From an uncultured Spirochaetales bacterium (GTDB lineage: Bacteria; Spirochaetota; Spirochaetia; SPDA01; CAZSGZ01): a DNA stretch of 64,000 bases. The stretch lies in NCBI GenBank assembly GCA_964458315.1, contig CAYWIK010000005.1, forward strand, positions 4,122-68,121, given 5' to 3'. Positions 2,274 through 44,409 of the stretch are shown here, one piece after another. The translations under genes were made by a program, and so were the position numbers. Under the pieces are notes generated by a model, which saw nothing but the letters and a program-made list of their open reading frames with translations, did no database searches and was not told where the DNA came from. The first letter of the stretch is position 1. Each line of letters begins with the position of its first letter.

Positions 2274-3416
2274 ATGCAAATTGTCCCTATTGCCAGCGGC
2301 AAAGGGGGGGTCGGTAAATCGTTGTTGGCGGCCAATATTTCTCTGGCACTGGCGCAGGCCGGGAAACGGGTCATTGTTGCCGATCTGGATTTAGGCGGCT
2401 CAAACCTGCATCTCATCTTAGGGATAATGGGAATAAAGAAAGGGATCGGCACCTTTCTAAACGATTCTTCTATGGATTTTCAGGAAATTGTCCTGGATAC
2501 GGAATATAAAAATCTCAAATTTATCCCCGGGGATACGGAAATTCCCGGGGCGGCAAACCTAAAAACGTTTCAGAAGAAGAAACTCCTCCGAAGGTTGTTG
2601 GCTCTTGACGCGGACTACCTGATCATGGACCTCGGTGCGGGAACCAATTTCAATACGATTGATTTTTTTCTCATTTCCGGAAACGGAATTGTCGTGACTG
2701 CACCAACGCCGACTGCGAATCTCAACGCGTATCTTTTTATTAAAAATGTTGTGTTCCGGATTATGCATTCTTCATTTAAAAAAGATTCGAAAGCCCAGGA
2801 GTATATAAATTCACTTCTCAAAAGCGGTACGACCTTTCAGCAGATTTATATGCCGAAACTTTTAACGGCTATCAGCGAACGCGATCCTGAGAGCTATGCT
2901 CAGTTTCAGAAAAAAGCTTCCTCCTTTCAACCAAGGCTCGTACTCAATCTTCTCGATGACCCAAAGGACGCGAACAAGGCAAAACGGCTCAGTCGGTCAT
3001 GTAAGGAGTATTTGGGAGTGGATATGGAACATTTAGGGATTATTTATCGTGACGAGCTTCAGGACGTGGCCCTCCAGAGCAGGCTGCCGATCATTCTGTA
3101 TAAACCGGATACCGTGCTTTCGCAGGCGATTTACCGAATCGCGGACAAGCTGGTCCAAACGGAAGAAGAAAGCCCCGGACCGGTGGATTTCGGAAATCTG
3201 GAAGAAGGTTATCAAGAGGCTGAAATCGAGGCCGAAGTCGATTTCGAAACAAAATTACGCTATATGGAAGACCTTCTCCACAGCGGAGCTCTCACTAAGG
3301 GAGACTTGGTCGAGACGATAAAGACTCAGCAGTATGAAATAAATCAGCTGCGGAAAGAAAATACATTTTTAAAGACAAAACTAGTTCGAGCAATCGAAGC
3401 CGGGTTTGACGGCTGA
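2274..3416 (+). CDS. MinD/FlhG/ParA-family P-loop ATPase with C-terminal coiled coil
   Basis: Deviant Walker A SGKGGVGKS, ADLDLGGSNL, DLGAG; C-terminal QQYEINQLRKENTFLKTKL. Confidence 0.9.
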   Translation: MQIVPIASGKGGVGKSLLAANISLALAQAGKRVIVADLDLGGSNLHLILGIMGIKKGIGTFLNDSSMDFQEIVLDTEYKNLKFIPGDTEIPGAANLKTFQKKKLLRRLLALDADYLIMDLGAGTNFNTIDFFLISGNGIVVTAPTPTANLNAYLFIKNVVFRIMHSSFKKDSKAQEYINSLLKSGTTFQQIYMPKLLTAISERDPESYAQFQKKASSFQPRLVLNLLDDPKDANKAKRLSRSCKEYLGVDMEHLGIIYRDELQDVALQSRLPIILYKPDTVLSQAIYRIADKLVQTEEESPGPVDFGNLEEGYQEAEIEAEVDFETKLRYMEDLLHSGALTKGDLVETIKTQQYEINQLRKENTFLKTKLVRAIEAGFDG

Positions 3417-3434
3417 ATTTATAGACAGAATATT
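3406..3434 (+). promoter_or_regulatory. Possible sigma70 promoter (TTGACG-N17-AATATT), 6 nt before the fapA ATG
   Basis: Good -35, weaker -10, no SD. Confidence 0.45.
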
Positions 3435-3440
3435 AGAGTT

Positions 3441-6398
3441 ATGAGTGAAACTGAATTACGAGGAACCGTACAGATTGAAATAGACGGTTCGGGGCTGGAA
3501 GCGCGTCTGGTATATCTCCCCGACGAACAGGGGGATGTGTGGGACAAAGAAAAAATATTAAATCTCTTTTCTCAAAACCGCATCACCGAAGGGTTTAAAG
3601 GCGATGCGATCGATGGGTTTTTGAAAAACCCTCCCAAACCCGGAGAGGACGGCAGAATCACTGTTTCGGCGGCTGAAGGCGTACCTCCGGAGCCGCCGAA
3701 AGACGAAGAGGCGGAGTGGATTGAACTGCCGATACCGGAAGAACTTGAGGAGGAGGCGAAACAGGTCTTTGCGGAAGCCGGTGAGCCGGAAATCATCCAA
3801 AACCGGGTCGAGAAAGTCCAGAAAAAGAAAAAGGTCGAGAAAAAGCAGAAACTCGGCTTTTTGCCCGCGAAAGAAGAGATTGTCACGGTAATCGAAAAAA
3901 GGGAAGTCCCCGAGGCGGTCAAGGTAGACCCCGCGGTGGTAGGGACCGGATGGGTCGAAGAAGGGATGAAAATCGCAACGGTATACCCGGGCCGGCCGGG
4001 AAAAATGGGGAAGGATATTTACGGTACCCCGTTGATGCCGGAACGGGAGCCCGCGATCGCCGTATATCCCGGTAAAGGGGTGGAAAAGCGGCGGAACGAT
4101 GTCGTTGCAACGGCAACGGGTTTTTTCAGAAGGGGGGCCGACTGGGCCGAAGTTATCCCTTTCTCCGCCCATTCGTGGGAGGTCGATCTTTCCACTGACA
4201 AGGCCACGGCGCTCCTCGATTTTTCTCCCGGCGACTCCCGGGCGGCCCTTCCGAGGGGAGAAAAAATCATCGAGGCGGCGAAAGGAAAAGGGGCCGATCC
4301 GGATACCCTTATCGAACCCGATGAGGTTGACCGTATCCTTAAAAAAGCCCTGGAAAAAGGACAAGAGGTCAAGGGCCGCTCCATCAGTATCGATGAAGAC
4401 GGGGAGGTCGAAATATCGGTTTCGGAAGACAGCATGAAGGCGACCCTCACCATAAAAAAGGGGAGGGGAAATGGGAAACCTCTCGATTTGAAGGAAGTAG
4501 GCACGGCCCTGCGGGAAAGCGGGGTTAGGGGTTTTAAATCCGACAAAGTAAAAAATGATATTCTGGCTTTCTACCGGAGCACCGAGCAGGTGCTCGATTC
4601 CTATCTCCTTGTCGAGGGTACCCCGCCGGAACAGCCGGACACTCCTGAGTTCGTGGTAAATATAAAATTTTTATCCGAGAAAGAACGGGACGCCCTTAAA
4701 AACAGACTCGCCGGCTTAATGTCCGCGGAAATGGGAATTACTTCAGAGGATGAGTTTCCCCTCGATAACGTGGAAGAAATGGGCTATGTAGTCCGGCACC
4801 AGCCGATTGGACATTTCGAAAAACAGCAGAAAGGAAAAAATGGAAGGAACGTATACGGAAAAGAGGTCCCGGCAGCGGACCCTCCCAACCCGATGGTAAA
4901 AACCTTTGAGAATGTGTTAACCGAGGGAGAGGAGTATACCGCGGAAGTTTCCGGAGTGCTGGAAAAAGGAATTGCAAACGGCGCTCTTATGCTTCGAATT
5001 CGGCCGTATCGAGACGGCGAGATGGAGATCAGGACCGCCGAAGATATGATGAAAGCATTCCTCACGATTATACCGCCGGAAGGAGCGGGGAAAGGGATCG
5101 CCCCGGAGCAAATTTGGACAAAAATCAAAGAACGGGGCATAATAAAAGGGCTCAAAGAAGAAATAATCGAGAAGGCGATAGAAACTGCAAAAAAAGGCGA
5201 ACCCGTTGAAAATCTGCTTATAGCGGAGGGGCAGGAACCGAGGCACGCGAGTAAAAACCAGATTAAATTTTTTGTCGAGTTCGCTGCTGACTCAAAGGTC
5301 ACCATAAAACAGGACGGTACTGCCGATTATAAAAATCTGAACAAACTTACTGCGGTAAACCGCGGCCAGCCGATTGCTCAAATCCTGCCCCCGGAGGAAG
5401 CCGGCGAGGACGGCTGGGATATTACGGGAAAGACCATAAGCGCCCGCAGTTTTCAAGGGTTTGATCTGGAAATCGGAGAGAATATTGTAAAAAAAGAACA
5501 GGAAGACGGTGGTTTTACCCTTATTGCGGACAGGGACGGAAAGCTGGTATACGATAAAAAATCGATAGCAATTCAAAATATTCACCTAGTCGATGGAAAC
5601 GTGGGCGTAAAAACCGGGAACGTAAAATTTAAGGGGCTGATACAGATAAAAGGAAGCGTTGAGAGCGGCTTTTCCGTAGTTGCCGGAGATGCTATTCAGG
5701 TAGGAGAAGGGGTCGAAGGCTCCCTTCTTTCCGCGGAAGGGGATATTCTAATCGGCCACGGGGTGAAAGGCGGAGGAAAAGCGGTAATACGCGCAAAGGA
5801 AAACATCAAAGCCGGGTTTGTGGAAATGTCCACCCTGCTGTCGGTCAAAGATATTATGATTAAAAATTTTTGTTTCCGGTCGGTGGTCAAATGTAACGGC
5901 AGGTTTCAGCTTATGTCGGAGAAGGGCCATCTCGTGGGCGGTACGGTACGGAGCAAGTTGGGGATTGACGTAATGAATCTCGGTTCGGACAAAGGAGTAA
6001 AAACGCAGGTTTGTTTCGGGCAGGATTATCTTATCGCGGACCAGATTGAAATCGAAGAGCGGGAAATTCAAAAAATCAAAGACAAACTTCTCACTTTCGA
6101 TGTGTATATGCATAAAATGGAAAAACAGGGCGATCGCAGCCGGCTGGAGAAGGCGCGCAAAGAAAAACATAAACTTATGAAAGTCCTGGAAAAACGAGGA
6201 TTACGGCTTTTCACTCTTCGGGAAAAGTTCGAAGAACACTTTCCTTCCGAGGTCCGTGTGAGAGGGACCTTGTATCCCGGGGCGGTAATAGAGAGTCACG
6301 GAAGATATTTCGAGTCGAAGGAGGAAAAAAAAGGCATTACTATCGTCTTTAATTCGGAATCCGGACAGCTGGAAGAAAAAGCGAATAAAGAAAAATAA
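3441..6398 (+). CDS. FapA/DUF342 family protein (flagellar assembly protein A-like), with repeated N-terminal domains
   Basis: Repeated (V/I)xxSxDxMKAxL-type modules, GxDxxG motifs, beta-helix VDGNV...TGNVKFKG, C-terminal coiled coil. Confidence 0.85.
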   Translation: MSETELRGTVQIEIDGSGLEARLVYLPDEQGDVWDKEKILNLFSQNRITEGFKGDAIDGFLKNPPKPGEDGRITVSAAEGVPPEPPKDEEAEWIELPIPEELEEEAKQVFAEAGEPEIIQNRVEKVQKKKKVEKKQKLGFLPAKEEIVTVIEKREVPEAVKVDPAVVGTGWVEEGMKIATVYPGRPGKMGKDIYGTPLMPEREPAIAVYPGKGVEKRRNDVVATATGFFRRGADWAEVIPFSAHSWEVDLSTDKATALLDFSPGDSRAALPRGEKIIEAAKGKGADPDTLIEPDEVDRILKKALEKGQEVKGRSISIDEDGEVEISVSEDSMKATLTIKKGRGNGKPLDLKEVGTALRESGVRGFKSDKVKNDILAFYRSTEQVLDSYLLVEGTPPEQPDTPEFVVNIKFLSEKERDALKNRLAGLMSAEMGITSEDEFPLDNVEEMGYVVRHQPIGHFEKQQKGKNGRNVYGKEVPAADPPNPMVKTFENVLTEGEEYTAEVSGVLEKGIANGALMLRIRPYRDGEMEIRTAEDMMKAFLTIIPPEGAGKGIAPEQIWTKIKERGIIKGLKEEIIEKAIETAKKGEPVENLLIAEGQEPRHASKNQIKFFVEFAADSKVTIKQDGTADYKNLNKLTAVNRGQPIAQILPPEEAGEDGWDITGKTISARSFQGFDLEIGENIVKKEQEDGGFTLIADRDGKLVYDKKSIAIQNIHLVDGNVGVKTGNVKFKGLIQIKGSVESGFSVVAGDAIQVGEGVEGSLLSAEGDILIGHGVKGGGKAVIRAKENIKAGFVEMSTLLSVKDIMIKNFCFRSVVKCNGRFQLMSEKGHLVGGTVRSKLGIDVMNLGSDKGVKTQVCFGQDYLIADQIEIEEREIQKIKDKLLTFDVYMHKMEKQGDRSRLEKARKEKHKLMKVLEKRGLRLFTLREKFEEHFPSEVRVRGTLYPGAVIESHGRYFESKEEKKGITIVFNSESGQLEEKANKEK

Positions 6399-6406
6399 GT
6401 CTCTGC

Positions 6407-6435
6407 TTGATTTTACGGCTCTTTCCGGGTATTCT
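6407..6435 (+). promoter_or_regulatory. sigma70 promoter (TTGATT-N17-TATTCT) for the receiver/Hpt pair
   Basis: Followed by AGGAG SD and TTG start at 6466. Confidence 0.6.
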
Positions 6436-6465
6436 GGTTGCACGAAGTAATGTAGGAGAATCAAA

Positions 6466-6858
6466 TTGAAGATCCTGATTGTCGAAGACGAGTTTGGAAG
6501 CAGAAAGTTGCTGCAAAAATTTCTCTCTCCTTACGGAATCTGTGATTTGGCTGTAGACGGAGAAGAAGCGGTCGAAGCATTCGCGCTTGCGTTAAAAGAA
6601 AAGGAGCCTTACGATTTAATCTGCCTTGATATTATGCTGCCGAAAAAAGACGGGCAGACGGTATTAAAGGAAGTACGAAAAATAGAAGCCGATGCGGGGA
6701 TTCAGGGGCTTTCAGGCGTCAAGGTTATCATGACCACCGCTTTAAATGATCCGAAAAATATCATACAGGCATTTAATTCACAATGTGAGGCATACATACC
6801 GAAACCTATATCGAAGCAGAAACTGCTCGAGGAAATGCGGGGTCTTAGTCTCCTTTGA
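6466..6858 (+). CDS. Single-domain response regulator (CheY-like receiver)
   Basis: ILIVEDE, phosphoacceptor CLDIMLP, MTTA, YIPKP. Confidence 0.92.
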   Translation: MKILIVEDEFGSRKLLQKFLSPYGICDLAVDGEEAVEAFALALKEKEPYDLICLDIMLPKKDGQTVLKEVRKIEADAGIQGLSGVKVIMTTALNDPKNIIQAFNSQCEAYIPKPISKQKLLEEMRGLSLL

Positions 6859-6884: not shown

Positions 6885-7250
6885 ATGTCCGGCGATATTG
6901 ATAAAAACGTTTTGCTAAGCAGGGAAACCGCCCTCGATCACGTGCAGGGAGACGAAGAGTTTCTCAATGAGATTTATCAAATTTTTCTCGAGGAAATTCC
7001 CGGTAGAATAGAAATGTTTCAGCAAGCATTGAATGATCATAATATTAATGAACTGATCAGTCTGGCCCATTCGTTAAAGGGAGTTTCACTGACTATCGGC
7101 GCAGGCTCCTGTCATGATATTGCCGAACGAATGGAAATGGCGGCCCGGGCCGATAAAATAGACAGAGTAAAGCAACTCTATCCGGAGTTAGAGCAAATTC
7201 TGTTAAAACTCAAGGAACGGCTTTCGGATATTATTAACAAATACTCTTGA
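6885..7250 (+). CDS. Standalone Hpt (histidine phosphotransfer) protein
   Basis: AHSLKGVS motif in a helical acidic domain. Confidence 0.9.
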   Translation: MSGDIDKNVLLSRETALDHVQGDEEFLNEIYQIFLEEIPGRIEMFQQALNDHNINELISLAHSLKGVSLTIGAGSCHDIAERMEMAARADKIDRVKQLYPELEQILLKLKERLSDIINKYS

Positions 7251-7275
7251 CAATATCTGTTTATATAGGTATATT
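7247..7275 (+). promoter_or_regulatory. sigma70 promoter of fur (TTGACA-N17-TATATT)
   Basis: Consensus -35 with 17-nt spacer. Confidence 0.8.
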
Positions 7276-7280
7276 GTTAA

Positions 7281-7295
7281 TGATAATTATTATCA
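7281..7295. promoter_or_regulatory. Fur box, perfect 7-1-7 (TGATAAT-T-ATTATCA)
   Basis: Exact inverted repeat over the predicted TSS of the fur gene. Confidence 0.88.
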
Positions 7296-7322
7296 ATAAA
7301 TGATTATGAAGGGCATGAGATT

Positions 7323-7796
7323 ATGGTAGATCCCCGAATTTGTCGCGGTTACTACGGCAGGTTTAAGCGAAAAGGGTTGCGAATGACCCTGCCGCGGCAG
7401 GTAATTCTCGAGGTGCTTGACACCACAGACCAAAAGTATATGACCGCGGAAGAAGTCTATATGAGGGTGCATGAAGAATATCCGGGGATCGGGCTCGCAA
7501 CGGTGTATCGGACCCTCAACCTGCTATCCGACATGGGGCTTGTCTCGAAATTTGAATTCGGGGAAGGAAAGGCCCGTTATGAACTGACGGAACGGGGACA
7601 GAGGGAAAAACATCACCACCTGCTCGTTTGTTCACACTGTTTTCGCGTGATCAAATATTCCGATTTTTCGGAGGAGGAGCAGAAAGTATATGCTGATATC
7701 GAAGCGAAGCTGGAAAAAACATACGATTTTGCCGTTAAGCGGCATGTGGTCCAGTACTACGGTATTTGCGCCGAGTGCCGGAAAACCGGCGAGTAA
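7323..7796 (+). CDS. fur: Fur family transcriptional repressor
   Basis: RMTLPRQVILEVL, GLATVYRTL, HHHLLVCSHC, and C-terminal CAEC (two CxxC). Confidence 0.93.
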   Translation: MVDPRICRGYYGRFKRKGLRMTLPRQVILEVLDTTDQKYMTAEEVYMRVHEEYPGIGLATVYRTLNLLSDMGLVSKFEFGEGKARYELTERGQREKHHHLLVCSHCFRVIKYSDFSEEEQKVYADIEAKLEKTYDFAVKRHVVQYYGICAECRKTGE

Positions 7797-7822
7797 AGGA
7801 AATTTATTTTTTTCAGGATAAG

Positions 7823-7837
7823 TGATAATAATTATTA
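7823..7837. promoter_or_regulatory. Second Fur box (TGATAAT-A-ATTATTA, one mismatch)
   Basis: In the 65-bp gap upstream of the DUF5320 gene. Confidence 0.75.
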
Positions 7838-7861
7838 AAATCAAGTTTGGAGGTATAGATT

Positions 7862-8224
7862 ATGCCAAGAGGAGACGGAACAGGACCGAGCGGTTTCGGA
7901 CCGATGACAGGAAGAGGTTTAGGATTTTGCGCCGGATACGATACCCCCGGGTTTACGCAGCCGGGATTCGGCGGACGAGGATACGGCCGCGGTTACGGCT
8001 ATGGGCCTGGGCGCGGGTTTCGGAGCTATTATGGTTACGGACGAGGCTTGAGGAGAGGCTTCGCTCCCGGTGCACCGGCTGCGCCTTGGAGCGGGTACAG
8101 CTATCCCGCTTATTCCGAAGAGGATGAAAGAAACATGCTCAAGGACGAAGCCGAGTTCTTGCGCGAGCGGCTCGATTCGGTAGAGAAACGGCTGTCGGAA
8201 ATGAAAGAAAAGGACGAGTCATAG
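7862..8224 (+). CDS. DUF5320-like Gly/Arg/Tyr-rich small protein
   Basis: MPRGDGTGPxGxGPMTGRGLGFCAG start, GRGYG repeats, C-terminal coiled coil; GGAGG SD. Confidence 0.85.
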   Translation: MPRGDGTGPSGFGPMTGRGLGFCAGYDTPGFTQPGFGGRGYGRGYGYGPGRGFRSYYGYGRGLRRGFAPGAPAAPWSGYSYPAYSEEDERNMLKDEAEFLRERLDSVEKRLSEMKEKDES

Positions 8225-8225
8225 C

Positions 8226-8585
8226 ATGAAGGTATGTATCACAGCAAAAGGAAAAGAGCCGACATCGGAAGTGGACCCGCGTTTCGGCCGGGCCCAGTAT
8301 TTCGTGTTTGCCGATACCGAGACGGACGATTTTGAAGCAGTGGAAAACCCGGCGGTCAGCGCTCCGGGCGGGGCGGGGGTCCAGGCGGGTCAGCTAGTCT
8401 CGGAGCGCGGCGTTAAGACGGTACTAACCGGCAATGTAGGGCCGAATGCGTTTCAGGTCTTAGACGCCGCCGGTATACGGATTGTCACCGGCGTCGGCGG
8501 AACCGTTGAAAAGGCGAAAAAAGATTTTATCGACGGTATTTACGACGGCAAAGAGACCTCTGGCCCCACGGTCAAGGGAAAATGA
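8226..8585 (+). CDS. NifB/NifX-family (COG1433, Orange protein-like) metal-cluster-binding protein
   Basis: VDPRFGRAQYF, GGAGVQAGQ, VLTGNVGPNAF. Confidence 0.9.
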   Translation: MKVCITAKGKEPTSEVDPRFGRAQYFVFADTETDDFEAVENPAVSAPGGAGVQAGQLVSERGVKTVLTGNVGPNAFQVLDAAGIRIVTGVGGTVEKAKKDFIDGIYDGKETSGPTVKGK

Positions 8586-9436
8586 GAATTGCCGTTGCAA
8601 GCGGCAAGGGAGGGACCGGAAAAACCACCCTTGCCGTCAATCTCGCCCTCTCACTCGATGGTGAAGTCTGTCTTGCGGACTGCGATGTCGAGGAGCCGAA
8701 CGACCACCTTTTTATTCAGGTACCGGTGGAGGGCGAGAAAGCCGTTCATGTACAGATACCGGTTATAAACGAAGAGCGCTGCACGGCGTGCGGAAGGTGC
8801 GTGGACATTTGCGAGTTCAACGCTCTTGCCGTGATCGGCGGCCAAGTGCTGGTATTCGAACAGCTTTGCCACGGATGCGGAGGCTGCAGCCGTTTCTGCC
8901 CCGAGAAAGCGATTACTGAACGGGAACGGGAAATCGGAACCGTATTGTGGGGCAGGCAGGAAAACCTGCATTTTATTTACGGTCGACTCAATATTGGAGA
9001 GGCACTCGCTCCCCCGGTCATTCGTGCAGTTCAGCATCGTATTCCGAAAACCGGAACGATCATCATCGACAGCCCTCCGGGTACGACCTGCTCCATGGTG
9101 CAGGCAGTGGCGGACTCCGATTACTGCATTCTGGTTGCCGAGAATACCCCCTTCGGGCTCCATGACGCGAAAATTGCGATACAGGCGGTGGCCAACCTCG
9201 ATGTTCCCCTCGGCGTGGTGATCAACCGGTACGATACCGGAGCAAGCGGTCTTGAAGCATTTCTCGAATCGGAAAAAATTCCCGTACTCATGCGGATTCC
9301 CTTTAATGAAGAAATTGCCAGGCTCTACTCAAGGGGTATTCCCTTTGTAACGGAACTAACTGAATACCGCCGTAAACTGATTGATCTTGCGGAACAGGTA
9401 GGAAAAGAAGTTTCGGTAAGCAGGGGGAGCCGATGA
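8582..9436 (+). CDS. MinD-like P-loop ATPase with inserted 2x[4Fe-4S] ferredoxin (COG1149), copy 1
   Basis: SGKGGTGKT, DCDVEEPN, CTACGRCVDIC, CHGCGGCSRFC, DSPPGTTC. Confidence 0.92.
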   Translation: MRIAVASGKGGTGKTTLAVNLALSLDGEVCLADCDVEEPNDHLFIQVPVEGEKAVHVQIPVINEERCTACGRCVDICEFNALAVIGGQVLVFEQLCHGCGGCSRFCPEKAITEREREIGTVLWGRQENLHFIYGRLNIGEALAPPVIRAVQHRIPKTGTIIIDSPPGTTCSMVQAVADSDYCILVAENTPFGLHDAKIAIQAVANLDVPLGVVINRYDTGASGLEAFLESEKIPVLMRIPFNEEIARLYSRGIPFVTELTEYRRKLIDLAEQVGKEVSVSRGSR

Positions 9437-10347
9437 AACAGATCGTTGTATTCAGCGGAAAAGGAGGGACCGGAAAAACGTCTATAACCGCGTCGCTTGC
9501 GGCGCTGGCGCAAAACGCACTTTATGCGGATTGTGATGTAGATGCTTCGAACCTGCACATAATCCTTCATCCGGACATTGAGGAAACTCATTCTTTTATG
9601 GGACCAAAATGCGCGGAAATCATACAGGAGCGCTGCACCCGGTGTCTCGAGTGCATTGAGGCATGCAGGTACGATGCGATTTCCGAAGAAAACGGCGTGG
9701 TTATGGTAAATCCCTTTCTCTGCGAAGGGTGCGGAGTCTGTTATCACCTTTGTCCGGTTGACGCCGTTTCCTTTGAGCAGCGGGAAGCCGGAGAATGGTA
9801 TGCAGGGGAAACAAAGTACGGTCCAATGGTGTACGCGGAGCTATTCCCGGGAGAGGAGAATTCGGGAAAACTGGTAACCGAAGTCAGAAAAAAAGTGAAA
9901 CAGCTCGGTGAGGATATGAAAAAGGATTGGTGTATCATCGACGGCCCGCCGGGAACAGGGTGCGCCGTTATGGCATCTATTACAGGCGCCGATGCCGCGG
10001 TCCTGGTCACCGAACCCACGGTATCCGGTATTCATGATATGAGGCGGGCCCTGGAACTTGCTGCGTTCTTTTCAATTCCAACCGGCGTAGTGATCAATAA
10101 GAGCAGCATCAACCCTGAGCAGACCGACTCAATTAGGAAAGAATGTGAAAATAAGGATATACCTGTCCTTGGCGAAATTCCCTATTCCCGGCTGGTCATC
10201 GATTCGGTTTCGGAATGTATTCCCTATGTAGAGTTTCGAGATGATGACATCAGCCGGTCTTTGCGGAATATATGGGAAAATTGTAGACTTATGACAAAAA
10301 CAGATGGAGAAGCAAAAGATGAGCGGACAGACGAAAGAACAAACTGA
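9433..10347 (+). CDS. MinD-like P-loop ATPase with inserted 2x[4Fe-4S] ferredoxin (COG1149), copy 2
   Basis: SGKGGTGKT, DCDVDASN, CTRCLECIEAC, CEGCGVCYHLC, DGPPGTGC. Confidence 0.92.
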   Translation: MKQIVVFSGKGGTGKTSITASLAALAQNALYADCDVDASNLHIILHPDIEETHSFMGPKCAEIIQERCTRCLECIEACRYDAISEENGVVMVNPFLCEGCGVCYHLCPVDAVSFEQREAGEWYAGETKYGPMVYAELFPGEENSGKLVTEVRKKVKQLGEDMKKDWCIIDGPPGTGCAVMASITGADAAVLVTEPTVSGIHDMRRALELAAFFSIPTGVVINKSSINPEQTDSIRKECENKDIPVLGEIPYSRLVIDSVSECIPYVEFRDDDISRSLRNIWENCRLMTKTDGEAKDERTDERTN

Positions 10348-11137
10348 AGAGCAGGACAAACGGTTAGAACGGAATATGAGCGGAATCAAGCACAAACTCA
10401 TCGTCATGAGCGGAAAGGGGGGAGTCGGAAAATCCACCGTTGCCGTCAATTTGGCCCTCGGGTTGGCGATGGATGGATTCCGCGTTGGTGTTCTCGATGT
10501 GGATATTCACGGACCGAATATCGCTAAAATGCTCGGTATCGAGGACCGGCATCTTGTATCGGACGGCGAATACATCGAACCGATCGAGGTGTTCCCCGGC
10601 CTCACGGCGGTGAGCCTTGCCCTCGCCGGGTACGGGAATGATACGCCGATTATTTGGCGAGGCCCCCTCAAGATGGGAGCGATCAAGCAGTTTTTATCCG
10701 ATGTCCGATGGTCTGAACTCGACTATCTCATAATCGACAGCCCTCCGGGGACGGGAGATGAGCCGCTGAGTGTATGTCAGCTGATCCCGGGTATGGACGG
10801 TGCGGTGATCGTGACCACCCCCCAGGATGTGGCCCTTCTCGATTCGAGAAAAAGCGTCAACTTTGCAAAGCAGCTCAATATTCCAGTTATCGGAGTGGTG
10901 GAAAATATGAGCGGCTTGGCCTGTCCGCACTGCGGCAAAGATATCGAGCTTTTCGGCCGAGGCGGCGGAGAGCGTACCGCGGGGGAGATGCAGGTGCCTT
11001 TTTTGGGAAGCGTACCCATCGACCCGGAAGTGGTGAAGTCGGGAGACGCGGGAAAGCCCTTCATCGCCAGCCGTAACGGGAACGCCGTCACCGAGGCGAT
11101 ACGGCAGATCGTGAAAAAAATAACCGCTGCGGAATGA
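10319..11137 (+). CDS. mrp: Mrp/NBP35 (ApbC) Fe-S cluster carrier ATPase
   Basis: SGKGGVGKS, DIHGPN, IIWRGP, DSPPGTGD, ENMSGLACPHC; start 10319 has a GGAG SD. Confidence 0.93.
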   Translation: MSGQTKEQTEEQDKRLERNMSGIKHKLIVMSGKGGVGKSTVAVNLALGLAMDGFRVGVLDVDIHGPNIAKMLGIEDRHLVSDGEYIEPIEVFPGLTAVSLALAGYGNDTPIIWRGPLKMGAIKQFLSDVRWSELDYLIIDSPPGTGDEPLSVCQLIPGMDGAVIVTTPQDVALLDSRKSVNFAKQLNIPVIGVVENMSGLACPHCGKDIELFGRGGGERTAGEMQVPFLGSVPIDPEVVKSGDAGKPFIASRNGNAVTEAIRQIVKKITAAE

Positions 11138-11159
11138 AAGTCCGGCGGAATATGTAACT

Positions 11160-12047
11160 ATGAAAACATGTTTGCAATGTATTCCCTGTTTTTTCAGGCA
11201 GGCCCTCGAGGCCGCCGAGTTGAACGGACTGGGAGAAGAAACACAGAGAAAAATAGTTAATACCCTCGCGGGACAGATACCGTCTTTCAAACTCGACCAT
11301 TCACCGGTCGAAATGGCCGGGTATCTCCACCGGCTGGTGCGGGAAGAAATTGACGGAAAGGACCCTTATGCCCGCATAAAAAGGGAAAGTAATAAAAAGG
11401 CGCTTACGTTGTATCCCCGGGCTAAAGAGGAGATTCAAAAGAGCGAAACACCTCTCCTGCGGGCGATTCAGTTCGCGGCGGCTGGGAATATAATCGATTT
11501 CGGCGTAAAGGGCAAAATCAATATCGAAGACGAACTCAACCGGATCCTGGAAATGGAGGAAAAGATTATTTCCAAGGAAGACCGGGACCTATTCGATTAT
11601 GAGGGCTTTTCAAAAAGACTTGCCGTAAGCAAAACCATGCTCTACATAGGAGACAATGCCGGAGAAATTGTGTTCGATAAACTGCTTATCGAGGAAATAG
11701 ATCGGTTATATCCGGACCTGCATATCTATTTTGCCGTGCGGGGCGGACCAATTATCAACGATGTGACGGAGAAAGATGCCAAAGAATGCGGAATTGATAA
11801 AATCGCAACGGTAATTTCCAGCGGTGCGGATATTCCCGGTATAATTCTGCCGCAGTCGAGCCAAGAATTCGTCCGCCTTTTCTTTACGAGCGACCTGGTC
11901 TTAAGTAAAGGACAGGGCAATTTTGAATCCCTTTCCTCGGAAAAGAGGCTTATATATTTTTTATTCATCGCAAAATGCGCGGTCATTGCGGATCATGTCA
12001 ATGCCGATATCGGAGCCGTTCTTCTCTTGAATAATTCTCTTGAATAA
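11160..12047 (+). CDS. DUF89/ARMT1-like damage-control metal-dependent phosphatase
   Basis: N-terminal CxxCxxC, DPY..K, AGNIIDFG, GDNAGE, INDVT, SKGQGNFE. Confidence 0.9.
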   Translation: MKTCLQCIPCFFRQALEAAELNGLGEETQRKIVNTLAGQIPSFKLDHSPVEMAGYLHRLVREEIDGKDPYARIKRESNKKALTLYPRAKEEIQKSETPLLRAIQFAAAGNIIDFGVKGKINIEDELNRILEMEEKIISKEDRDLFDYEGFSKRLAVSKTMLYIGDNAGEIVFDKLLIEEIDRLYPDLHIYFAVRGGPIINDVTEKDAKECGIDKIATVISSGADIPGIILPQSSQEFVRLFFTSDLVLSKGQGNFESLSSEKRLIYFLFIAKCAVIADHVNADIGAVLLLNNSLE

Positions 12048-12091
12048 TTTTATGTTCTATGTAGAATCAAGCTGATTGCAAGGAGAAGGGA

Positions 12092-12433
12092 ATGAAAGAG
12101 ATATCTGCCCTCACGACACATGAAAAAGTATTTCTCGCCGGGTGTATAAAAAACATGATTTTGGCCGACGGTGTCTTCGATGATTCCGAATTGAATGAAT
12201 TGGATGTGCTCCTCGATGAACTCGACTTTACCGATTATGAAGAATGTTTAATGGAATTTGAAAACGGAGTCAACGACAGCGATTCATTTTGGGAAATGGC
12301 GGAGACGATTGAAGATCAGGAGACCCATGAAATGATTCTCGAAGTTTTATACGATCTGTCCATTCAGAAGGGATTGGAAGAATCAACAGAAAAAAATCTG
12401 CTCTCCGGTCTGAAAGAAATCTGGCAGATCTAA
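12092..12433 (+). CDS. Acidic TerB-like hypothetical protein
   Basis: MILADGVFDDSE resembles the TerB (A/S)DG motif; AGGAG SD. Confidence 0.55.
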   Translation: MKEISALTTHEKVFLAGCIKNMILADGVFDDSELNELDVLLDELDFTDYEECLMEFENGVNDSDSFWEMAETIEDQETHEMILEVLYDLSIQKGLEESTEKNLLSGLKEIWQI

Positions 12434-30254: not shown

Positions 30255-30272
30255 TAATGATTGGAGCGCATT

Positions 30273-31646
30273 GTGCAGTACCAAAAGCCGCAAATGGCAC
30301 AGCAGCAGAAACTCAAAATGAATCCCCAGCTCTATCAGTCGATAAAACTGATGGCCCTCCCGGTGCAGGAGCTGAAGTTTCGGATCCACGAAGAACTGCA
30401 AAACAATCCTGCTTTAGAAATTATCGAAGAGAAAACCGAGACTTCTCTGGAAGCGGAAACCGAAGAAAGGGGGGAGGAGTATGAATATTTCGACAACACC
30501 TCGGACCCGGGCTATACCGGATCTTTCGATGACGAGGCGAGTGACGCGAAGCGTAAGTTTATGGAAAATGCCCTCTCCCGTCCGGAGAACCTTCACGAGC
30601 ACTTGATGTGGCAGCTTCGGCTTCAGCCGATCAGTGAACGGGAGTTCGAGATCGGGCGCCTGCTGATACACAATCTCGACGATAACGGGTTTCATATCGA
30701 GGAACCGGAGAACCTCATTCCGCCCGCGGAGAAAAAAATCCTAGATGATATGATCGAGCGAATTCAAGGATTCGAACCGGTCGGTGTGTGTACCGCGGAT
30801 TATAAGGAATCGCTTATTGTACAGGCTGAGTATGCGCCGACTGCTCCGGAAAGAACGGTCGAACTTATAAAAAACCATCTCCAACACCTCGAGAAGGGAA
30901 GAATCGACAAGGTGGCGAAAGAGATGGAGATGGAAGAGGAGGAAGTGGAAGAAATCCTCGAGTTTATTCGGACGCTCAATCCGCTGCCCGGGACCCAGTT
31001 TTCCGCGGAAACCGCGCGTTATGTAATCCCGGATGTTCTTGTACGAATAAGAGACGGGGAATTTGTCCTCGTTTTAAATGACGAGGAGATACCGGTTTTA
31101 GGGATTAATTCATTTTTTACCCATCTCCACGATGACGAAAATACCGCGGGCAAGAAAGATGTAAAACGGTACGTAAACGATAAGATCAAGGACGCGAAGT
31201 GGTTTATTCGGAGCATTCATCAGAGAAACGAAACGCTTATTAAAATTTCGAAGGCAATTGTCGAATTTCAGCGGGATTTTTTCCTGCGCGGCCCGAAATA
31301 TCTCGTCCCTCTTACTCTCAAAGACGTTGCTGATGAGGTCGGTGTCCATGAAACCACCGTATCGAGAATTGCCAACGCAAAATATATCCAGACTGAATGG
31401 GGGACTTTTGAAATCAAATATTTTTTTTCCAACTCCATTTCCGGCGCTGGATCTAAGGGTTCTCGTTTCTCGAAAGAGGGGGTTAAGGCGATGATCAAGG
31501 AGCTTATAGAAGAGCATTCCTCGGAAAAGAAATTATCGGACCAAAAGATTGCCGATGAACTAAAGAAAAAAGGAGTGCAGATCGCCCGAAGGACCGTTGC
31601 TAAATATAGAGGCGAGTTGGACATTATGTCGTCCTACGACAGATAA
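30273..31646 (+). CDS. rpoN: RNA polymerase sigma-54 factor
   Basis: Gln-rich region I, VGVHETTVSR HTH, RpoN box ARRTVAKYR. Confidence 0.97.
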   Translation: MQYQKPQMAQQQKLKMNPQLYQSIKLMALPVQELKFRIHEELQNNPALEIIEEKTETSLEAETEERGEEYEYFDNTSDPGYTGSFDDEASDAKRKFMENALSRPENLHEHLMWQLRLQPISEREFEIGRLLIHNLDDNGFHIEEPENLIPPAEKKILDDMIERIQGFEPVGVCTADYKESLIVQAEYAPTAPERTVELIKNHLQHLEKGRIDKVAKEMEMEEEEVEEILEFIRTLNPLPGTQFSAETARYVIPDVLVRIRDGEFVLVLNDEEIPVLGINSFFTHLHDDENTAGKKDVKRYVNDKIKDAKWFIRSIHQRNETLIKISKAIVEFQRDFFLRGPKYLVPLTLKDVADEVGVHETTVSRIANAKYIQTEWGTFEIKYFFSNSISGAGSKGSRFSKEGVKAMIKELIEEHSSEKKLSDQKIADELKKKGVQIARRTVAKYRGELDIMSSYDR

Positions 31647-31663
31647 AATATGCGGGAGGTTTT

Positions 31664-31960
31664 ATGAACGTCGAAATCAAGGCTGTCCATTTTTCGATTG
31701 GGGATGATACTAAAGAGTATATCCATAAAAAGCTGCATCGAATCGATTTTGCAAAAGATTTGATTGTAGATTTACTGTTTACATTAACCAAGGAAAAGCG
31801 GGATTTCAGAGCAGAGGTAAATATCCATTTTAAATGGAATGTTACGAGTCATATAAAGGTCAAGGCTTTCGACCTTATCGAGGGTATTGATTTGCTCATG
31901 GATAAAATGGAACGGAAAGTGCGCAAGGAAAAGGAAAAGGTCCAGGACCATTCGGCATGA
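31664..31960 (+). CDS. hpf: Ribosome hibernation promoting factor (short HPF)
   Basis: S30AE-like fold pattern, IDLLMDKMERKVRKEKEK; follows rpoN. Confidence 0.88.
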   Translation: MNVEIKAVHFSIGDDTKEYIHKKLHRIDFAKDLIVDLLFTLTKEKRDFRAEVNIHFKWNVTSHIKVKAFDLIEGIDLLMDKMERKVRKEKEKVQDHSA

Positions 31961-32940
31961 AAAAGTTTACCGTATTAGATCTTTTGGACCTGGATTTAAA
32001 AGACCACAACGCCCTCTATCTAAAATGTATCGGCGGACGGCCCGGACTGGTCCGTGAAATTACCGTACCCGATTTGAACCGGCCGGGACTTGCCCTCGGC
32101 GGTTTCTTTGATAATTTTGCATACCAGCGTATCCAGCTTTTCGGCAGAGGGGAGCAGGCCTATCTCCTGAAACTCGAAAGAGAACAGGAATCCCAGCCCC
32201 TTATCGAGATGTTCAAATACGAATTCCCGTGCTGCATTTTCAGCCACGGCCTTTTTCCGAGCGAAGCGTTTATGCGCCTTGCGGAAGAGTCGCAGTGTCC
32301 GGTCCTGCAGACGAAACTCTCTTCTTCCGATTTGGCCGTGCGGCTTATGTGGGCCCTCAATAATGTGTTTGCCCCGAAAAAAACGATCCACGGAGTATTA
32401 GTGGAGGTATTCGGTATCGGCGTTCTCATTAAGGGAGACAGCGGTGTCGGAAAGAGTGAAACCGCTCTTGAGCTTATCGAGCGCGGCCACCGCCTTATTG
32501 CGGACGATGCGGTTGAGATGAAATGTGTGAGCGGTAATATTCTTACCGGAACCGGCGCGAATAAGGCCATCGGCCATCACATGGAAATCCGGGGGCTGGG
32601 AATCATCAATATAACCCATCTGTTCGGGGTGGGGGCCATTCGGGACAAAAAGCAGATCCAGCTCGTAGTCGAACTCGAGGAATGGGACGCGGACAAAGAA
32701 TATGACCGGCTGGGAGCTTCGAACAATACGGAGGAACTGTTAGGCGTCCATATTCCCTATTTGATGATCCCGGTAAAACCGGGTAGAAATATCCCGATTA
32801 TTATAGAAACCGCGGCAATGAATGAGAGGCTTAAAAAGATGGGTTTTTACAGCGCGAAAGAGTTTAATCAAAATATTTTAAAGTGGCTCGAGAGCGAGAA
32901 CGCGAGGAACCTTTATTTCAAAAAGAAATCGGTTTTTTAA
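31957..32940 (+). CDS. hprK: HPr kinase/phosphorylase
   Basis: NRPGLAL, HGVLVEV, GDSGVGKSE, ADDAV, MEIRGLG, PVKPGRN. Confidence 0.97.
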   Translation: MKKFTVLDLLDLDLKDHNALYLKCIGGRPGLVREITVPDLNRPGLALGGFFDNFAYQRIQLFGRGEQAYLLKLEREQESQPLIEMFKYEFPCCIFSHGLFPSEAFMRLAEESQCPVLQTKLSSSDLAVRLMWALNNVFAPKKTIHGVLVEVFGIGVLIKGDSGVGKSETALELIERGHRLIADDAVEMKCVSGNILTGTGANKAIGHHMEIRGLGIINITHLFGVGAIRDKKQIQLVVELEEWDADKEYDRLGASNNTEELLGVHIPYLMIPVKPGRNIPIIIETAAMNERLKKMGFYSAKEFNQNILKWLESENARNLYFKKKSVF

Positions 32941-32948
32941 GGAAAAAA

Positions 32949-33215
32949 ATGGAAGAGCGGGAAGTTACGATTAAAAACCGGGCCGGTATACACGCGCGCC
33001 CGGCCGCACTTATCGTGCAGACGGCGAATAAGTATGACGCGCAGATCTCCTTTGAAAAAGATGACGATAGGGTGAATGGGAAATCAATCATGGGAATCAT
33101 TACCCTCGGAGCAGGGTACAATACAAAACTGAAAGTCATTGCCGAGGGTGATGATGAGAAACAGGCAGTGGACGCGATTGCCGCACTGTTCGAAAAAAGG
33201 TTTGAGGAAGATTAG
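32949..33215 (+). CDS. ptsH: Phosphocarrier protein HPr
   Basis: GIHARPA (His15) and VNGKSIMG (Ser46). Confidence 0.96.
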   Translation: MEEREVTIKNRAGIHARPAALIVQTANKYDAQISFEKDDDRVNGKSIMGIITLGAGYNTKLKVIAEGDDEKQAVDAIAALFEKRFEED

Positions 33216-33780
33216 TCGATTATTCAGATATCTGTTTTTCATTTCTCTTTTTTTTCTTTGCCCGCTTTTTTCAATAGAAGCAGGTCTGCATGTTGATGTT
33301 TTATGCGATGAAGAAACCATTACCCTGGATATTCGTCTGCACGACATGCCGACCGAAGAAATCTTGAAAAGCTTTGAAAAAGGCTATCGCGGGGAAATCA
33401 ATTTTAATATCAAATTATATCGCAAAACCGAAGGGCTTTTTTCCTTTCTTGGAGACCGGCTCGTACAAGAAGTGAATTTAACCCGGGAAGCGGGCTGGGA
33501 CATGTTCGATCGAGTATTCTATTTTACGGAAGAATCCGGGGGAAGACATGCTTTTAAAGAGAAACAAATTTTTTTTTCAAAACTGTTTTCCGTACATAAT
33601 CTGCGTCTTTCAGTAGAGTTCGATGACGATCGAAGTTATTATCTCCTTGTCAATGGACAGATCAATCCGGTAAAGCTGACCGCACCGATATCCATCATCC
33701 AGCTTGTTCGCCCGGAAGGAAGATATACTACACCCTGGAAGCGGGTCCCGGTCAGCCCCGATGAAGAGGACGGCAGATGA
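33202..33780 (+). CDS. DUF4390-like exported protein (start uncertain)
   Basis: Hydrophobic signal, domain resembling DUF4390, usual position before an ntrY-like kinase. Confidence 0.6.
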   Translation: MRKISRLFRYLFFISLFFLCPLFSIEAGLHVDVLCDEETITLDIRLHDMPTEEILKSFEKGYRGEINFNIKLYRKTEGLFSFLGDRLVQEVNLTREAGWDMFDRVFYFTEESGGRHAFKEKQIFFSKLFSVHNLRLSVEFDDDRSYYLLVNGQINPVKLTAPISIIQLVRPEGRYTTPWKRVPVSPDEEDGR

Positions 33781-35531
33781 AGCTGTTCCGAGGCACCGCT
33801 TCCTCCACGGCGGGGATATTAAGTGTTGTATTTATCTATATCATCCTCATCCTCATGGTACTCCTTTTTTCGAGCCAAATCCTTAAGGACGTGACGGAAG
33901 AAGGAAGACTTTCCAATTCCATCATCATACCTATCGGGATCCTTCTTCCCCTCGCCCTGCTCGGGATCATTGTTTTCAACATTATCCGCCTTGCCCGGGA
34001 TAAACGGGCGAATAAACCGGGAGTCCGATTTAAAATTCGTCTCATTCTGTTTTTTACCTTCATTTCTCTTCTATCGTCGATCCCCCAGGGGATCCTTTCG
34101 ATCAGTTTTTTAGATACCACCCTCAATTCCTGGTTCAGCGCCCGGCTCGGCCGGGCCCTCGAAGGAGGCGTCCATATCGCTTTGACCCATTATAATGAGC
34201 GGGTGGAGAGTCTGCAGGATTTTTCCTCGAGCAGGGTTTTTCACTCCCTCATGCAGGACATTGAGTACAGACCGGAACGGGTGTGGGAAAACATTCGTTC
34301 CGTAAACCGGATGGTCGAATCATTTCAAGTTTTTAAAAACGAAGAGAGCCTCTTTTTCTTTGGAGACGGAAGGGGAGAAATTGAAGCGTACAGTTCTTCC
34401 CTCGTTCGGGAGGGATCGGTTATAAAAGATACCACCGAAGAAATATCCGCGCTTCGGGTTTTCCGAAACGTGAAGGCCGGCGGAGCGGAATATCAGGTCG
34501 TATTAAGCTCATTCCTTCCCGATAATTTCGATCTCGAGGCCGGAAACCTTACAAAGTCCTTAGAAGTATTCAGACAGCTCGAAGAATATAATACAATTTT
34601 TCGGCTGGTACTGATTCTTTTCTACTCCTTTTTCTCGGTCCCGATCCTCCTTCTTTCGATCCTTGTTAGTTTTATCTTAAGCGATGAGATTATCCGCCCC
34701 ATCGTGCATCTCGAAGAGGCGACGAGAAAAGTCGCTGAGGGTGATTTCTCTGTCCGGATACTCTCCCGCAGCCGGGATGAACTTGCGGTTTTGACCCAAT
34801 CGTTTAATACGATGGTTTCGGAAATGGAACATTCCCGAAGACAGCTGCTGCAGGCTGAAAAAGTGACCGCCTGGCAGGAAATAGCCCAGCGAATGGCCCA
34901 CGAAATTAAAAATCCTTTAACACCGATAAAACTCTCGGCCCAGAGAATTTTGAAGAAATACAGCCGCGACCCTTCGGGGTTCGAAGGGATTCTCGAACCG
35001 GCGGTGGAATCGATCGTACGGGAAGTAGACAATCTCAACGATCTTCTGAGGGAGTTCCGTGATTTTGCCCGTCTGCCGGCGCCCCGGACGGAAATCGTCC
35101 CGTTAAAAGATTTAATCGAAGAAACCATAGCTTCCTTTCAGGCTTCCTATCCGGGGGTGGGCTTTTTTCAGCATGTCGGAGAAGACATTACCATACGGGC
35201 GGACCGGGGACAAATTGGAAGGATATTTCAGAATTTGATAAAAAATGCAATTGACGCAATGGGCGAAAGGGGCGAAATAACTTTGTACGCTTCACTTGTA
35301 ACGAAAGGAAATATACATTATTCTAGAGTACAGATTCAGGATACCGGTCCGGGAATCAAAGAGCAGGATCGGGAAAAGATTTTCCATCCTTATTTTACTA
35401 CAAAAGATCACGGAACCGGTCTGGGGCTTGCGATTGTAGAGCGTATTATATTCGATCACAAGGGAAGTATCTGGTTCGATACGGAACCGGATATTGGCAC
35501 CACCTTCTATATTGATTTGCCTTCGGAGTAG
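33777..35531 (+). CDS. NtrY-like membrane sensor histidine kinase (HAMP-HisKA-HATPase)
   Basis: AWQEIAQRMAHEIKNPLTPIKLSAQR, QNLIKNAIDA, DTGPG, GTGLGLAI. Confidence 0.93.
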   Translation: MKLFRGTASSTAGILSVVFIYIILILMVLLFSSQILKDVTEEGRLSNSIIIPIGILLPLALLGIIVFNIIRLARDKRANKPGVRFKIRLILFFTFISLLSSIPQGILSISFLDTTLNSWFSARLGRALEGGVHIALTHYNERVESLQDFSSSRVFHSLMQDIEYRPERVWENIRSVNRMVESFQVFKNEESLFFFGDGRGEIEAYSSSLVREGSVIKDTTEEISALRVFRNVKAGGAEYQVVLSSFLPDNFDLEAGNLTKSLEVFRQLEEYNTIFRLVLILFYSFFSVPILLLSILVSFILSDEIIRPIVHLEEATRKVAEGDFSVRILSRSRDELAVLTQSFNTMVSEMEHSRRQLLQAEKVTAWQEIAQRMAHEIKNPLTPIKLSAQRILKKYSRDPSGFEGILEPAVESIVREVDNLNDLLREFRDFARLPAPRTEIVPLKDLIEETIASFQASYPGVGFFQHVGEDITIRADRGQIGRIFQNLIKNAIDAMGERGEITLYASLVTKGNIHYSRVQIQDTGPGIKEQDREKIFHPYFTTKDHGTGLGLAIVERIIFDHKGSIWFDTEPDIGTTFYIDLPSE

Positions 35532-35536
35532 TTGTC

Positions 35537-42634: not shown

Positions 42635-42721
42635 TTACATATGAATCATTGCTTTGATAACGCTGTCTTTGTACCCGTCTACCAGTTCGAAAGCATACTG
42701 GACTTCCGCCGCCTTCATCAT
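42635..42721 (-). pseudogene. 28-codon ORF resembling the extreme C-terminus of a Zn-dependent (MDR) dehydrogenase
   Basis: Hand-translated MMKAAEVQYAFELVDGYKDSVIKAMIHM*; GGAGG upstream; ATG overlaps the stop of the FAD oxidoreductase. Confidence 0.5.
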
Positions 42722-44397: not shown

Positions 44398-44409
44398 GGA
44401 TCTACCTTA

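Follow-up and report, generated by a model that had tools for sequence, protein, structure and literature searches.

A Fur-family gene with two predicted operators heads an orange-protein-like iron–sulfur module in an uncultured Spirochaetales bacterium and in other bacterial lineages

In Escherichia coli, the Fur protein represses the suf operon for iron–sulfur (Fe-S) cluster assembly, and an autoregulated Fur acting on a 7-1-7 box (the Bacillus subtilis and E. coli consensus) is a classical arrangement. The orange protein (ORP) complex is conserved in strict anaerobes and has been studied only in Desulfovibrio, where Orp3 and Orp4 are ATPases with two [4Fe-4S] clusters each, Orp8 is the ORP and Orp9 is MrpORP (PMC6345978, PMC8359166). 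In Desulfovibrio vulgaris, MrpORP hands Fe-S clusters to the Orp3/Orp4/Orp8 sub-complex in vitro (PMC6345978), and the orp operons need sigma-54, IHF and the Fe-S-containing redox sensor OrpR (PMC6345978, PMC3897727, PMC8359166). Here, we analyzed a stretch of 64,000 nt from an uncultured Spirochaetales bacterium (contig CAYWIK010000005.1, positions 4,122 to 68,121; hereafter, the window), in which an ORP-like module lies directly behind a gene for a Fur-family regulator. The first-pass annotation of the stretch had set this module beside the Desulfovibrio complex (COG1433, two COG1149 ATPases and Mrp, under OrpR control), a description that agrees with the published accounts (PMC6345978, PMC8359166), and had proposed that the module answers to a dedicated Fur-family repressor. 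The analysis suggested that the Fur-family protein is likely to repress its own operon, the module included, through two boxes, and that regulator gene, operators and module probably form a conserved, autoregulated unit.

The open reading frame (ORF) listing and the Pfam and NCBIfam scans of the window proteins returned the gene run described before (fur, DUF5320, a NifX-like protein, two ferredoxin-ATPases, Mrp and DUF89), as shown in Table 1, together with a TerB-like ORF that was missing from the earlier list and is the probable last gene of the transcription unit. All genes of the 7323-12433 run lie on the + strand with spacings ranging from -44 to +65 nt, so that a single transcript is expected. 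The start of the copy A ATPase overlaps the stop codon of the NifX-like gene by 4 nt, the TerB-like gene is kept 3′ of DUF89 in five related loci (L001-L005), and a convergent PTS-IIA gene ending at 12430 closes the unit.

The predicted promoter P1 is sigma-70-like, with a 17-nt spacer, an 11/12 match to the consensus and the best score of the region, and the stop codon (TGA) of the upstream Hpt gene lies inside its -35 hexamer. The operator O1 begins 6 nt 3′ of the -10 hexamer and therefore covers the predicted transcription start; the location of a box at the promoter of fur itself implies autoregulation. The second operator, O2, lies 27 nt 3′ of the fur stop and 25 nt 5′ of the DUF5320 start. 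The perfect box over the fur start and the second box before DUF5320, both reported in the first-pass annotation, were thus recovered with zero and one mismatch, respectively, the start site being a predicted one. When the 7-1-7 box was scanned over the whole window, O1 and O2 were the only credible boxes: they are the sole matches with ≤2 mismatches in 64 kb, with 0.16 expected, and two of 100 shuffles reached two matches. Five other matches to the relaxed consensus TGAnAATnATTnTCA were obtained in the window, all of them intragenic and at approximately chance frequency.

Table 1. Predicted control elements and genes of the Fur-headed unit; positions are those of the window.
Feature	Position	Strand	Basis
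-35 hexamer TTGACA of promoter P1	7247..7252	+	promoter scan
-10 hexamer TATATT of promoter P1	7270..7275	+	promoter scan
Operator O1 (predicted), 7-1-7 Fur box TGATAATTATTATCA	7281..7295	.	0 mismatches to TGATAATnATTATCA
fur-family regulator, 157 aa	7323..7796	+	PF01475, 109.7 bits
Operator O2 (predicted), Fur box TGATAATAATTATTA	7823..7837	.	1 mismatch; in the 65-nt fur-DUF5320 spacer
Candidate -10 TAAAAT of a possible weak internal promoter P2, overlapping O2	7836..7841	+	read from the sequence
DUF5320 protein	7862..8224	+	PF17253, 89.7 bits
ORP/MTH1175-type single-domain Nitro_FeMo-Co (IPR003731; NifX-like) protein, 119 aa	8226..8585	+	PF02579, 87.6 bits
P-loop ATPase copy A, inserted 2x[4Fe-4S] ferredoxin domain (COG1149 type; Orp3/Orp4-like)	8582..9436	+	CbiA/ParA and two Fer4
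P-loop ATPase copy B, inserted 2x[4Fe-4S] ferredoxin domain	9433..10347	+	CbiA/ParA and two Fer4
Mrp/NBP35 Fe-S cluster carrier, single-domain, 277 aa	10304..11137	+	PF10609, 324.7 bits
DUF89/ARMT1-like metal-dependent phosphatase family protein	11160..12047	+	228 bits
TerB-like small protein	12092..12433	+	weak Pfam match, below cut-off

The Fur subfamily and the module were found together across a wide range of genomes. A first search, with one genome per species and an alignment of Fur homologues only as the query, yielded 80 loci (numbered here with the prefix L) whose Fur proteins are 46-76% identical to that of the window; the window Fur as a single-protein query had no matches in the species-genome scan, and the alignment query was needed. 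The lineages obtained include Spirochaetota, Omnitrophota, Atribacterota, Elusimicrobiota, Planctomycetota, Nitrospirota, Clostridia, Calditrichota, Ignavibacteria, Cloacimonadota, TA06, Auribacterota and others. The loci were annotated by phmmer with the window proteins as queries, and those with at least 1.5 kb downstream were taken as evaluable. Same-strand DUF5320, NifX-like or ferredoxin-ATPase genes were located within 2.5 kb 3′ of fur in 62 of the 70 evaluable loci; among the exceptions, Mrp comes right after fur in L021 and L054, the module lies about 3.3 kb downstream in L084, and L014, L015, L017 and L019 are Marispirochaeta-like genomes. With a box defined as ≤1 mismatch to the relaxed consensus, 54 of 78 loci harbor one within 150 nt 5′ of fur and 34 of 79 just 3′ of it, the background rate being 0.3% of 4617 control windows. 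A second search was seeded from a Clostridia member, and its locus set partly overlaps the first. It gave the module in 62 of 63 evaluable loci, an upstream box in 32 of 69 and a spacer box in 35 of 71, and added WOR-3, Aminicenantes, Sumerlaeota and Syntrophales; though it was aimed at cultured organisms, only metagenome or single-cell genomes came back. Across both searches, the arrangement of Fur and module spans at least 15 phylum-level lineages.

The boxes are concentrated at the same genes. A total of 127 box matches were detected in 1.88 Mb of loci, with 65 preceding fur and 36 preceding DUF5320 or NifX-like genes, and several of 22 other matches precede unrecognised MPxxDGTGP proteins; about 85% of the matches lie at fur or module genes. 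The converse search, with the ferredoxin-ATPase as query, covered 53 loci with enough upstream sequence and sampled ORP-like modules of Desulfobacterota, Dehalococcoidia, Bathyarchaeia, Thermoplasmata, methanogens, Omnitrophota and others. A box with ≤1 mismatch was found in six of the 11 or so loci with an adjacent fur, in none of the 10 with an adjacent sigma-54 activator (all Desulfobacterota, the OrpR situation) and in two of the 32 with neither regulator adjacent. As the box is frequent in Fur-linked modules and rare in the other ORP-like modules, the operator travels with a neighbouring fur rather than being a general ORP-like feature. This converse test is our main argument for a cis-linked regulator-operator pair, which is probably a dedicated one. 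Two loci, L143 (Ignavibacteria) and L158 (Zixibacteria), carry a box with ≤1 mismatch despite having no adjacent fur, and in these lineages the regulator may be encoded further away.

The proposal of a Fur-family repressor thus gains strong support from comparative genomics, the subfamily, two operators and the module being co-inherited across phyla and the box being essentially absent where no fur is adjacent. The idea that the module had been rewired to Fur in this genome in particular did not stand, since the arrangement spans more phyla than the sigma-54 type does.

Among the close spirochaete relatives, the order of response regulator, Hpt, fur and module is kept in contigs whose Fur is 66-93% identical to that of the window, and a perfect box occupies the same position in every related spirochaete locus with the module. 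The register of -35 hexamer, -10 hexamer and box is retained in spirochaete relatives with Fur 50-93% identical to the window's, while the flanking bases diverge, and TTGAC stands at a constant distance from the box in L001, L004, L006, L007, L011 and L012. O2 is kept in L001-L006 and L013. Reduced forms were observed as well, namely fur-NifX-like-Mrp-DUF89 in L007 and fur-NifX-like-Mrp in L011 and L012, and these maintain the first box only. In the Marispirochaeta-like genomes (L009, L010, L014-L017 and L019), an orthologous fur immediately follows the response regulator, its FapA/LGT/sigma-factor/response-regulator context being the same, with a CheW and MCP gene 3′ of it, and both the adjacent module and the Fur box are missing.

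The module varies in content. DUF89 recurs in it across many phyla, and the Fur-headed islands of other phyla (L052, L024, L058, L028 and L084) also harbor genes for NifU_N, EncFtn-like ferritin, cation efflux (CDF), DsrE, a CoA-disulfide-reductase-like flavoprotein, radical-SAM, methyltransferase, DUF169, metallo-beta-lactamase-fold, thioredoxin and peroxiredoxin proteins, which point to iron and sulfur handling. An Omnitrophota locus (L031) contains two tandem fur copies, each with its own DUF5320 gene (2657-3557 and 6995-7863). A 229-aa metallo-beta-lactamase-fold gene lies between mrp and DUF89 in L001 (10845-11534), L004 (10833-11522) and L013 (10145-10834); it is missing from the window, where only a 22-nt gap (11137-11160) separates the two genes. 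A family of about 70 aa with no Pfam match occurs within many modules (L048 8631-8843, L037 5380-5598, L024 9012-9236), having a DUF5320-like N-terminus (MPxGDGTGPxGxGP...GRG) and a Cys-rich end (CxCPxCG...CPKCG). It may be the small Fe-S protein of the ORP operons, its equivalence to Orp5 (a small Cys-rich [2Fe-2S] protein) being assumed, and no copy was found in the window.

According to the mechanism we propose, 7247-12433 would be one autoregulated transcription unit, in which the strong P1 would drive fur and, by read-through, the seven downstream genes, with a possible addition from a weak internal promoter. A DNA-binding Fur dimer on O1 would block initiation over the start and so shut off its own synthesis, and Fur on O2 would add a module-specific block, either over the weak internal promoter or as a roadblock, keeping the module more tightly off; loss of the DNA-binding form would derepress the unit. 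The most likely signal would be intracellular Fe(II) or a related divalent metal, because most subfamily members keep the metal sites and the islands elsewhere carry NifU, EncFtn-like ferritin and cation-efflux genes. The logic would be like that of Fur control of suf in E. coli, scarcer metal leading to more capacity for carrying or inserting Fe-S clusters. A role of the module in Fe-S handling is suggested by the in vitro passage of clusters from MrpORP to Orp3, Orp4 and Orp8 in Desulfovibrio (PMC6345978).

The public gene call for the regulator (P0002, 137 aa) starts at an internal ATG at 7383; the longer form is favored by the conservation of the 20 additional N-terminal residues among homologues and by a GAAGGG ribosome-binding site ahead of 7323. 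The FUR domain covers residues 17-145 and passed the Pfam gathering score (cut-off 23.1 bits), and both profiles and solved-structure sequence searches place the protein nearer to true Fur than to PerR, Zur or Nur, with 100 bits to 9IRE and 87 bits to E. coli Fur. The metal sites were compared by aligning the protein to E. coli Fur and 86 subfamily members. The Cys4 structural zinc site, formed by two CxxC pairs (C103, C106, C149 and C152), is invariant in 88 aligned sequences, and the S3-type site (H97, H99, E119 and H141) is invariant as well. The canonical S2 ligands we take to be H33, E81, H88, H90 and E101 of E. coli, as in the Pa, Vc and Hp Fur structures. In the 67 non-spirochaete members, S2 is complete, with H39, E87 and HHHH at 97-100, and D111 in 60 of them; these members also keep the S1 and S3 ligands and look like ordinary metal-sensing Fur proteins. 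The spirochaete clade has Y/F39, L/Q/V100 and K/R111 at the S2 positions, and its operators are, if anything, nearer to the consensus. A Cys at position 7 (or Cys-Cys) was observed in many members of the spirochaete clade and in none outside it.

Several points weigh against an autoregulatory, metal-responsive unit of this kind. Three of the five canonical S2 ligands are replaced in the window protein (Y39, E87, H98, L100 and K111), so that an Fe(II) effector cannot be assumed and iron sensing at the usual site is doubtful in this genome; we judge iron as the signal here to fall slightly short of probable. The regulator also lies below every NCBIfam equivalog cut-off, scoring 125.1 against 220 for its best match NF051892 (Bacillus-type Fur), 99 against 146 for PRK09462, 88.8 against 180 for PerR and 38 against 167 for Zur. 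The sequence of O1 and O2 is the generic Fur consensus, and another Fur paralogue elsewhere in the genome could bind it. The candidate P2 has no good -35 and was not reported by the promoter scan, leaving O2 without a convincing promoter of its own, so that O2 could either cover an internal promoter or act as a roadblock; the -10 position of P2 reads TATAAT in L004 and TATATT in L001. Moreover, a Fur-repressed unit fits iron storage poorly unless the apo form represses.

Of the alternative explanations, the one that survives best, though we still consider it unlikely, is that the protein is a general iron regulator with the module as one of many targets, which would make the module Fur-controlled but not dedicated. 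The Marispirochaeta-like genomes, which keep fur in the same context with neither module nor box, suggest a function beyond the module, so that this Fur may have a wider role, and the generic box is comparable with delta-proteobacterial sites (PMC545781); no second fur was found in the 64 kb of the genome that was scanned. However, subfamily and module travel together in at least 15 phylum-level lineages, the box is essentially lacking from ORP-like modules with no adjacent fur, the great majority of boxes lie at fur or module genes, and the tandem duplication in L031 has given each fur copy its own DUF5320 gene. The term "dedicated" in the first-pass annotation is therefore upheld only in part: co-inheritance points to dedication, but some spirochaetes keep an orthologous fur with no module or box.

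A regulator that senses peroxide or redox state, either in the manner of PerR or via the clade-specific N-terminal Cys, seems improbable. Such a regulator would match the redox control of orp, as OrpR turns orp off when the redox potential rises (PMC8359166). The PerR model is the third-best NCBIfam match, the S2 site is degenerate, and the Cys at position 7 is confined to the spirochaete clade. Against this, PerR senses peroxide via the S2-equivalent site, which is the very one lost here, the Fur models and structures outscore PerR, and conservation of the N-terminal Cys does not extend to the whole subfamily. In B. subtilis, G at position 2 and C at position 14 distinguish Fur boxes from PerR boxes (TTATAATnATTATAA), and the boxes of the window carry both.

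We give similarly little credence to a spirochaete-clade regulator that senses another metal (Zn or Ni) via the HxH...E...H site, or that binds independently of any metal signal as a constant damper. The S3-type and Cys4 sites are the only ones left intact in this clade, and its boxes have stayed perfect although S2 is lost. A His-x-His/Glu/His site is one of the zinc-sensing sites of Streptomyces Zur. The Zur and Nur models and structures nevertheless score poorly with the window protein, and the other subfamily members combine canonical Fur sites with these same operators. Finally, that the boxes are chance AT-rich palindromes or promoter elements in a coincidental gene order is scarcely conceivable: though the intergenic regions are AT-rich and two of 100 window shuffles gave two matches, the position-specific conservation (54/78 against 0.3%) and the absence of the box where fur is absent effectively refute it.

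The surroundings of the unit were also inspected. The genes 5′ of fur encode a response regulator, an Hpt protein, FapA and a MinD/FlhG-like ATPase, and the remaining window genes are housekeeping ones, such as purL, CTP synthase, Lpt genes, rpoN (30261-31646), HPr kinase, sulfate-assimilation genes, an electron-transfer flavoprotein (ETF)/FAD oxidase and a two-component sigma-54 activator. The rpoN, HPr kinase, histidine kinase and NtrC-type sigma-54 activator genes span 30261-36904; this activator, the sole one in the window, contains a receiver domain, follows the histidine kinase gene and lies 24 kb from the module. Sigma-54 control is therefore available to the organism, yet unused for the ORP-like module. 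No nitrogenase genes, iron-uptake genes or second fur were found within the 64-kb window; the absence of nitrogenase noted in the first reading of the stretch thus holds, and a nitrogenase role for the module was rejected on this ground. On the - strand, 42718-48128 holds a FAD-linked oxidase and, behind it, a 627-aa protein that matches ETF domains twice, also has an ETF-alpha FAD domain and resembles a fused electron-transfer flavoprotein; a 612-aa ORF with no Pfam match adjoins the latter.

The window sequence occurs in microbial-mat and stromatolite metagenomes, and homologues of its Fur are labelled Spirochaetales. Short contigs of a mat metatranscriptome (X19) match it with 99-100% identity at 6400-6624 (response regulator), 7385-7626 (fur) and 10849-11012 (mrp), which is weak evidence of expression of the locus in situ, as the run type was guessed and DNA carry-over is possible; two further runs had no match to the locus.

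No description of a Fur link to ORP, COG1149, COG1433 or DUF5320 was found in the searchable literature, and the reconstructed delta-proteobacterial Fur regulon does not include ORP-like clusters (PMC545781). All Fur-linked loci recovered come from metagenome-assembled or single-cell genomes, which may explain this gap. For a complex studied only in Desulfovibrio, the Fur-linked unit offers a handle on its role: a Fur gene of its own and two conserved operators, in many mostly uncultured phyla, would place the module in metal homeostasis. The unit yields a defined candidate protein-DNA pair, a predicted inducing condition and a natural series of regulators with canonical and degenerate sensing sites. 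The analysis also delimits a Fur subfamily for which the gene context reveals the target, which is useful for annotating metagenome-assembled genomes, and DUF5320 is flagged as the conserved first gene of the module.

DUF5320 invites comparison with IssA, the thioferrate iron-sulfur storage protein of Pyrococcus furiosus, in which a disordered tail behind the IPR003731 domain holds the only Cys and is proposed to bind anionic thioferrate; MTH1175 is cited as a tail-less protein of the IssA type (PMC5524996). In the DUF5320 family, the N-terminal motif (MPRGDGTGPxGxGPMTGRxxGxCAG) is invariant and includes one invariant Cys; it is followed by a stretch rich in Gly, Arg, aromatic residues and Pro, and by a C-terminal amphipathic helix. 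Residues 1-84 of the window protein include 26 Gly, nine Arg/Lys, 17 aromatic residues, 10 Pro and one Cys, with a pI of 10, and AlphaFold2 gave low confidence for 1-85 (disordered) and a confident helix at 86-119; no solved structure related to DUF5320, or to the whole COG1149-type ATPase, was found. The window shares with IssA the IPR003731 globular domain, MTH1175 being the best structural-database match of its protein, and DUF5320 has, like the IssA tail, a disordered segment of cationic and aromatic character that is rich in Gly and Pro and contains a single Cys. The resemblance in composition makes a split IssA-like system conceivable. The two differ in that the 119-aa IPR003731 protein of the window is tail-less, the tail-like segment being the separate DUF5320 with its own N-terminal motif and helix. 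A fusion of DUF5320 and IPR003731 (the Rosetta-stone test) was not found among the 120 best DUF5320 homologues. We regard as speculative, and on balance unlikely, a broader scheme in which a specialised Fur lineage governs a two-protein IssA-like storage and delivery system in a metal-sulfur homeostasis regulon widespread among anaerobes, with another signal in the spirochaete clade. Under such a scheme, the tail-less IPR003731 protein would act as the nucleus for an anionic Fe-S or thioferrate-like species, DUF5320 would provide the cationic segment and the invariant Cys in trans and would oligomerise via its C-terminal helix, Mrp together with the two ferredoxin-ATPases would take care of cluster loading or unloading, and the spirochaete-clade regulator would have given up the canonical S2 iron site for another signal.

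Compared with Fur control of suf and with classical Fur autoregulation, the window has in common a Fur-family repressor, an operator over a sigma-70 promoter, Fe-S machinery and a box identical to the 7-1-7 consensus, binding in the window being predicted. The differences are that the regulated genes bear no relation to suf or isc, that regulator and target are linked both by position and by descent, that the operon contains a second operator and that the sensing site is degenerate in the clade. In Helicobacter pylori, apo-Fur represses the ferritin gene pfr. This is a precedent for repression by a metal-free form, which would make a role in storage compatible with an operator over the start, although the operator of the window is of the holo-type consensus.

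The closest comparison is with the ORP complex of Desulfovibrio (D. vulgaris Hildenborough and D. alaskensis). In both, there are two paralogous ATPases with two [4Fe-4S] motifs each; in the window, copies A and B score 147 bits to each other, each has two CxxCxxCxxxC motifs, and copy A contains GKGGTGKT, CTACGRCVDIC and CHGCGGCSRFCP. A single-domain IPR003731 protein, an Mrp/NBP35 carrier and restriction to anaerobes are also common to both, and DUF5320 likewise heads activator-linked clusters in Desulfobacterota (L093 and L108). The matches of the NifX-like protein to PDB sequences are MTH1175 (80 bits), 1RDU of Thermotoga maritima (71 bits) and the ORP of Desulfovibrio gigas, 2WFB (70 bits, E = 1.9e-18), scores so similar that the ORP clade and the IssA-type clade are not separated for this protein. 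The Mrp carries a deviant Walker A motif (GKGGVGKS) and a CxxC bridging-cluster motif (CPHC). It scores 370.7 bits with the MrpORP model NF041136 over model positions 1-250 of 365, below the cut-off of 450, and 246 bits with ApbC, and is thus closest to the P-loop domain of MrpORP but lacks the fused Di-Nase domain. The control also differs, with a sigma-70-type promoter, Fur boxes and an adjacent fur in the window instead of sigma-54, IHF and OrpR. The window genes form one operon, while those of Desulfovibrio form two divergent ones, and the window adds the DUF89 and TerB-like genes. As the core ORP parts are shared, but the two-domain Mrp and the sigma-54/OrpR control are not, and no copy of the putative Orp5 counterpart was found in the window, the module is best called ORP-like.

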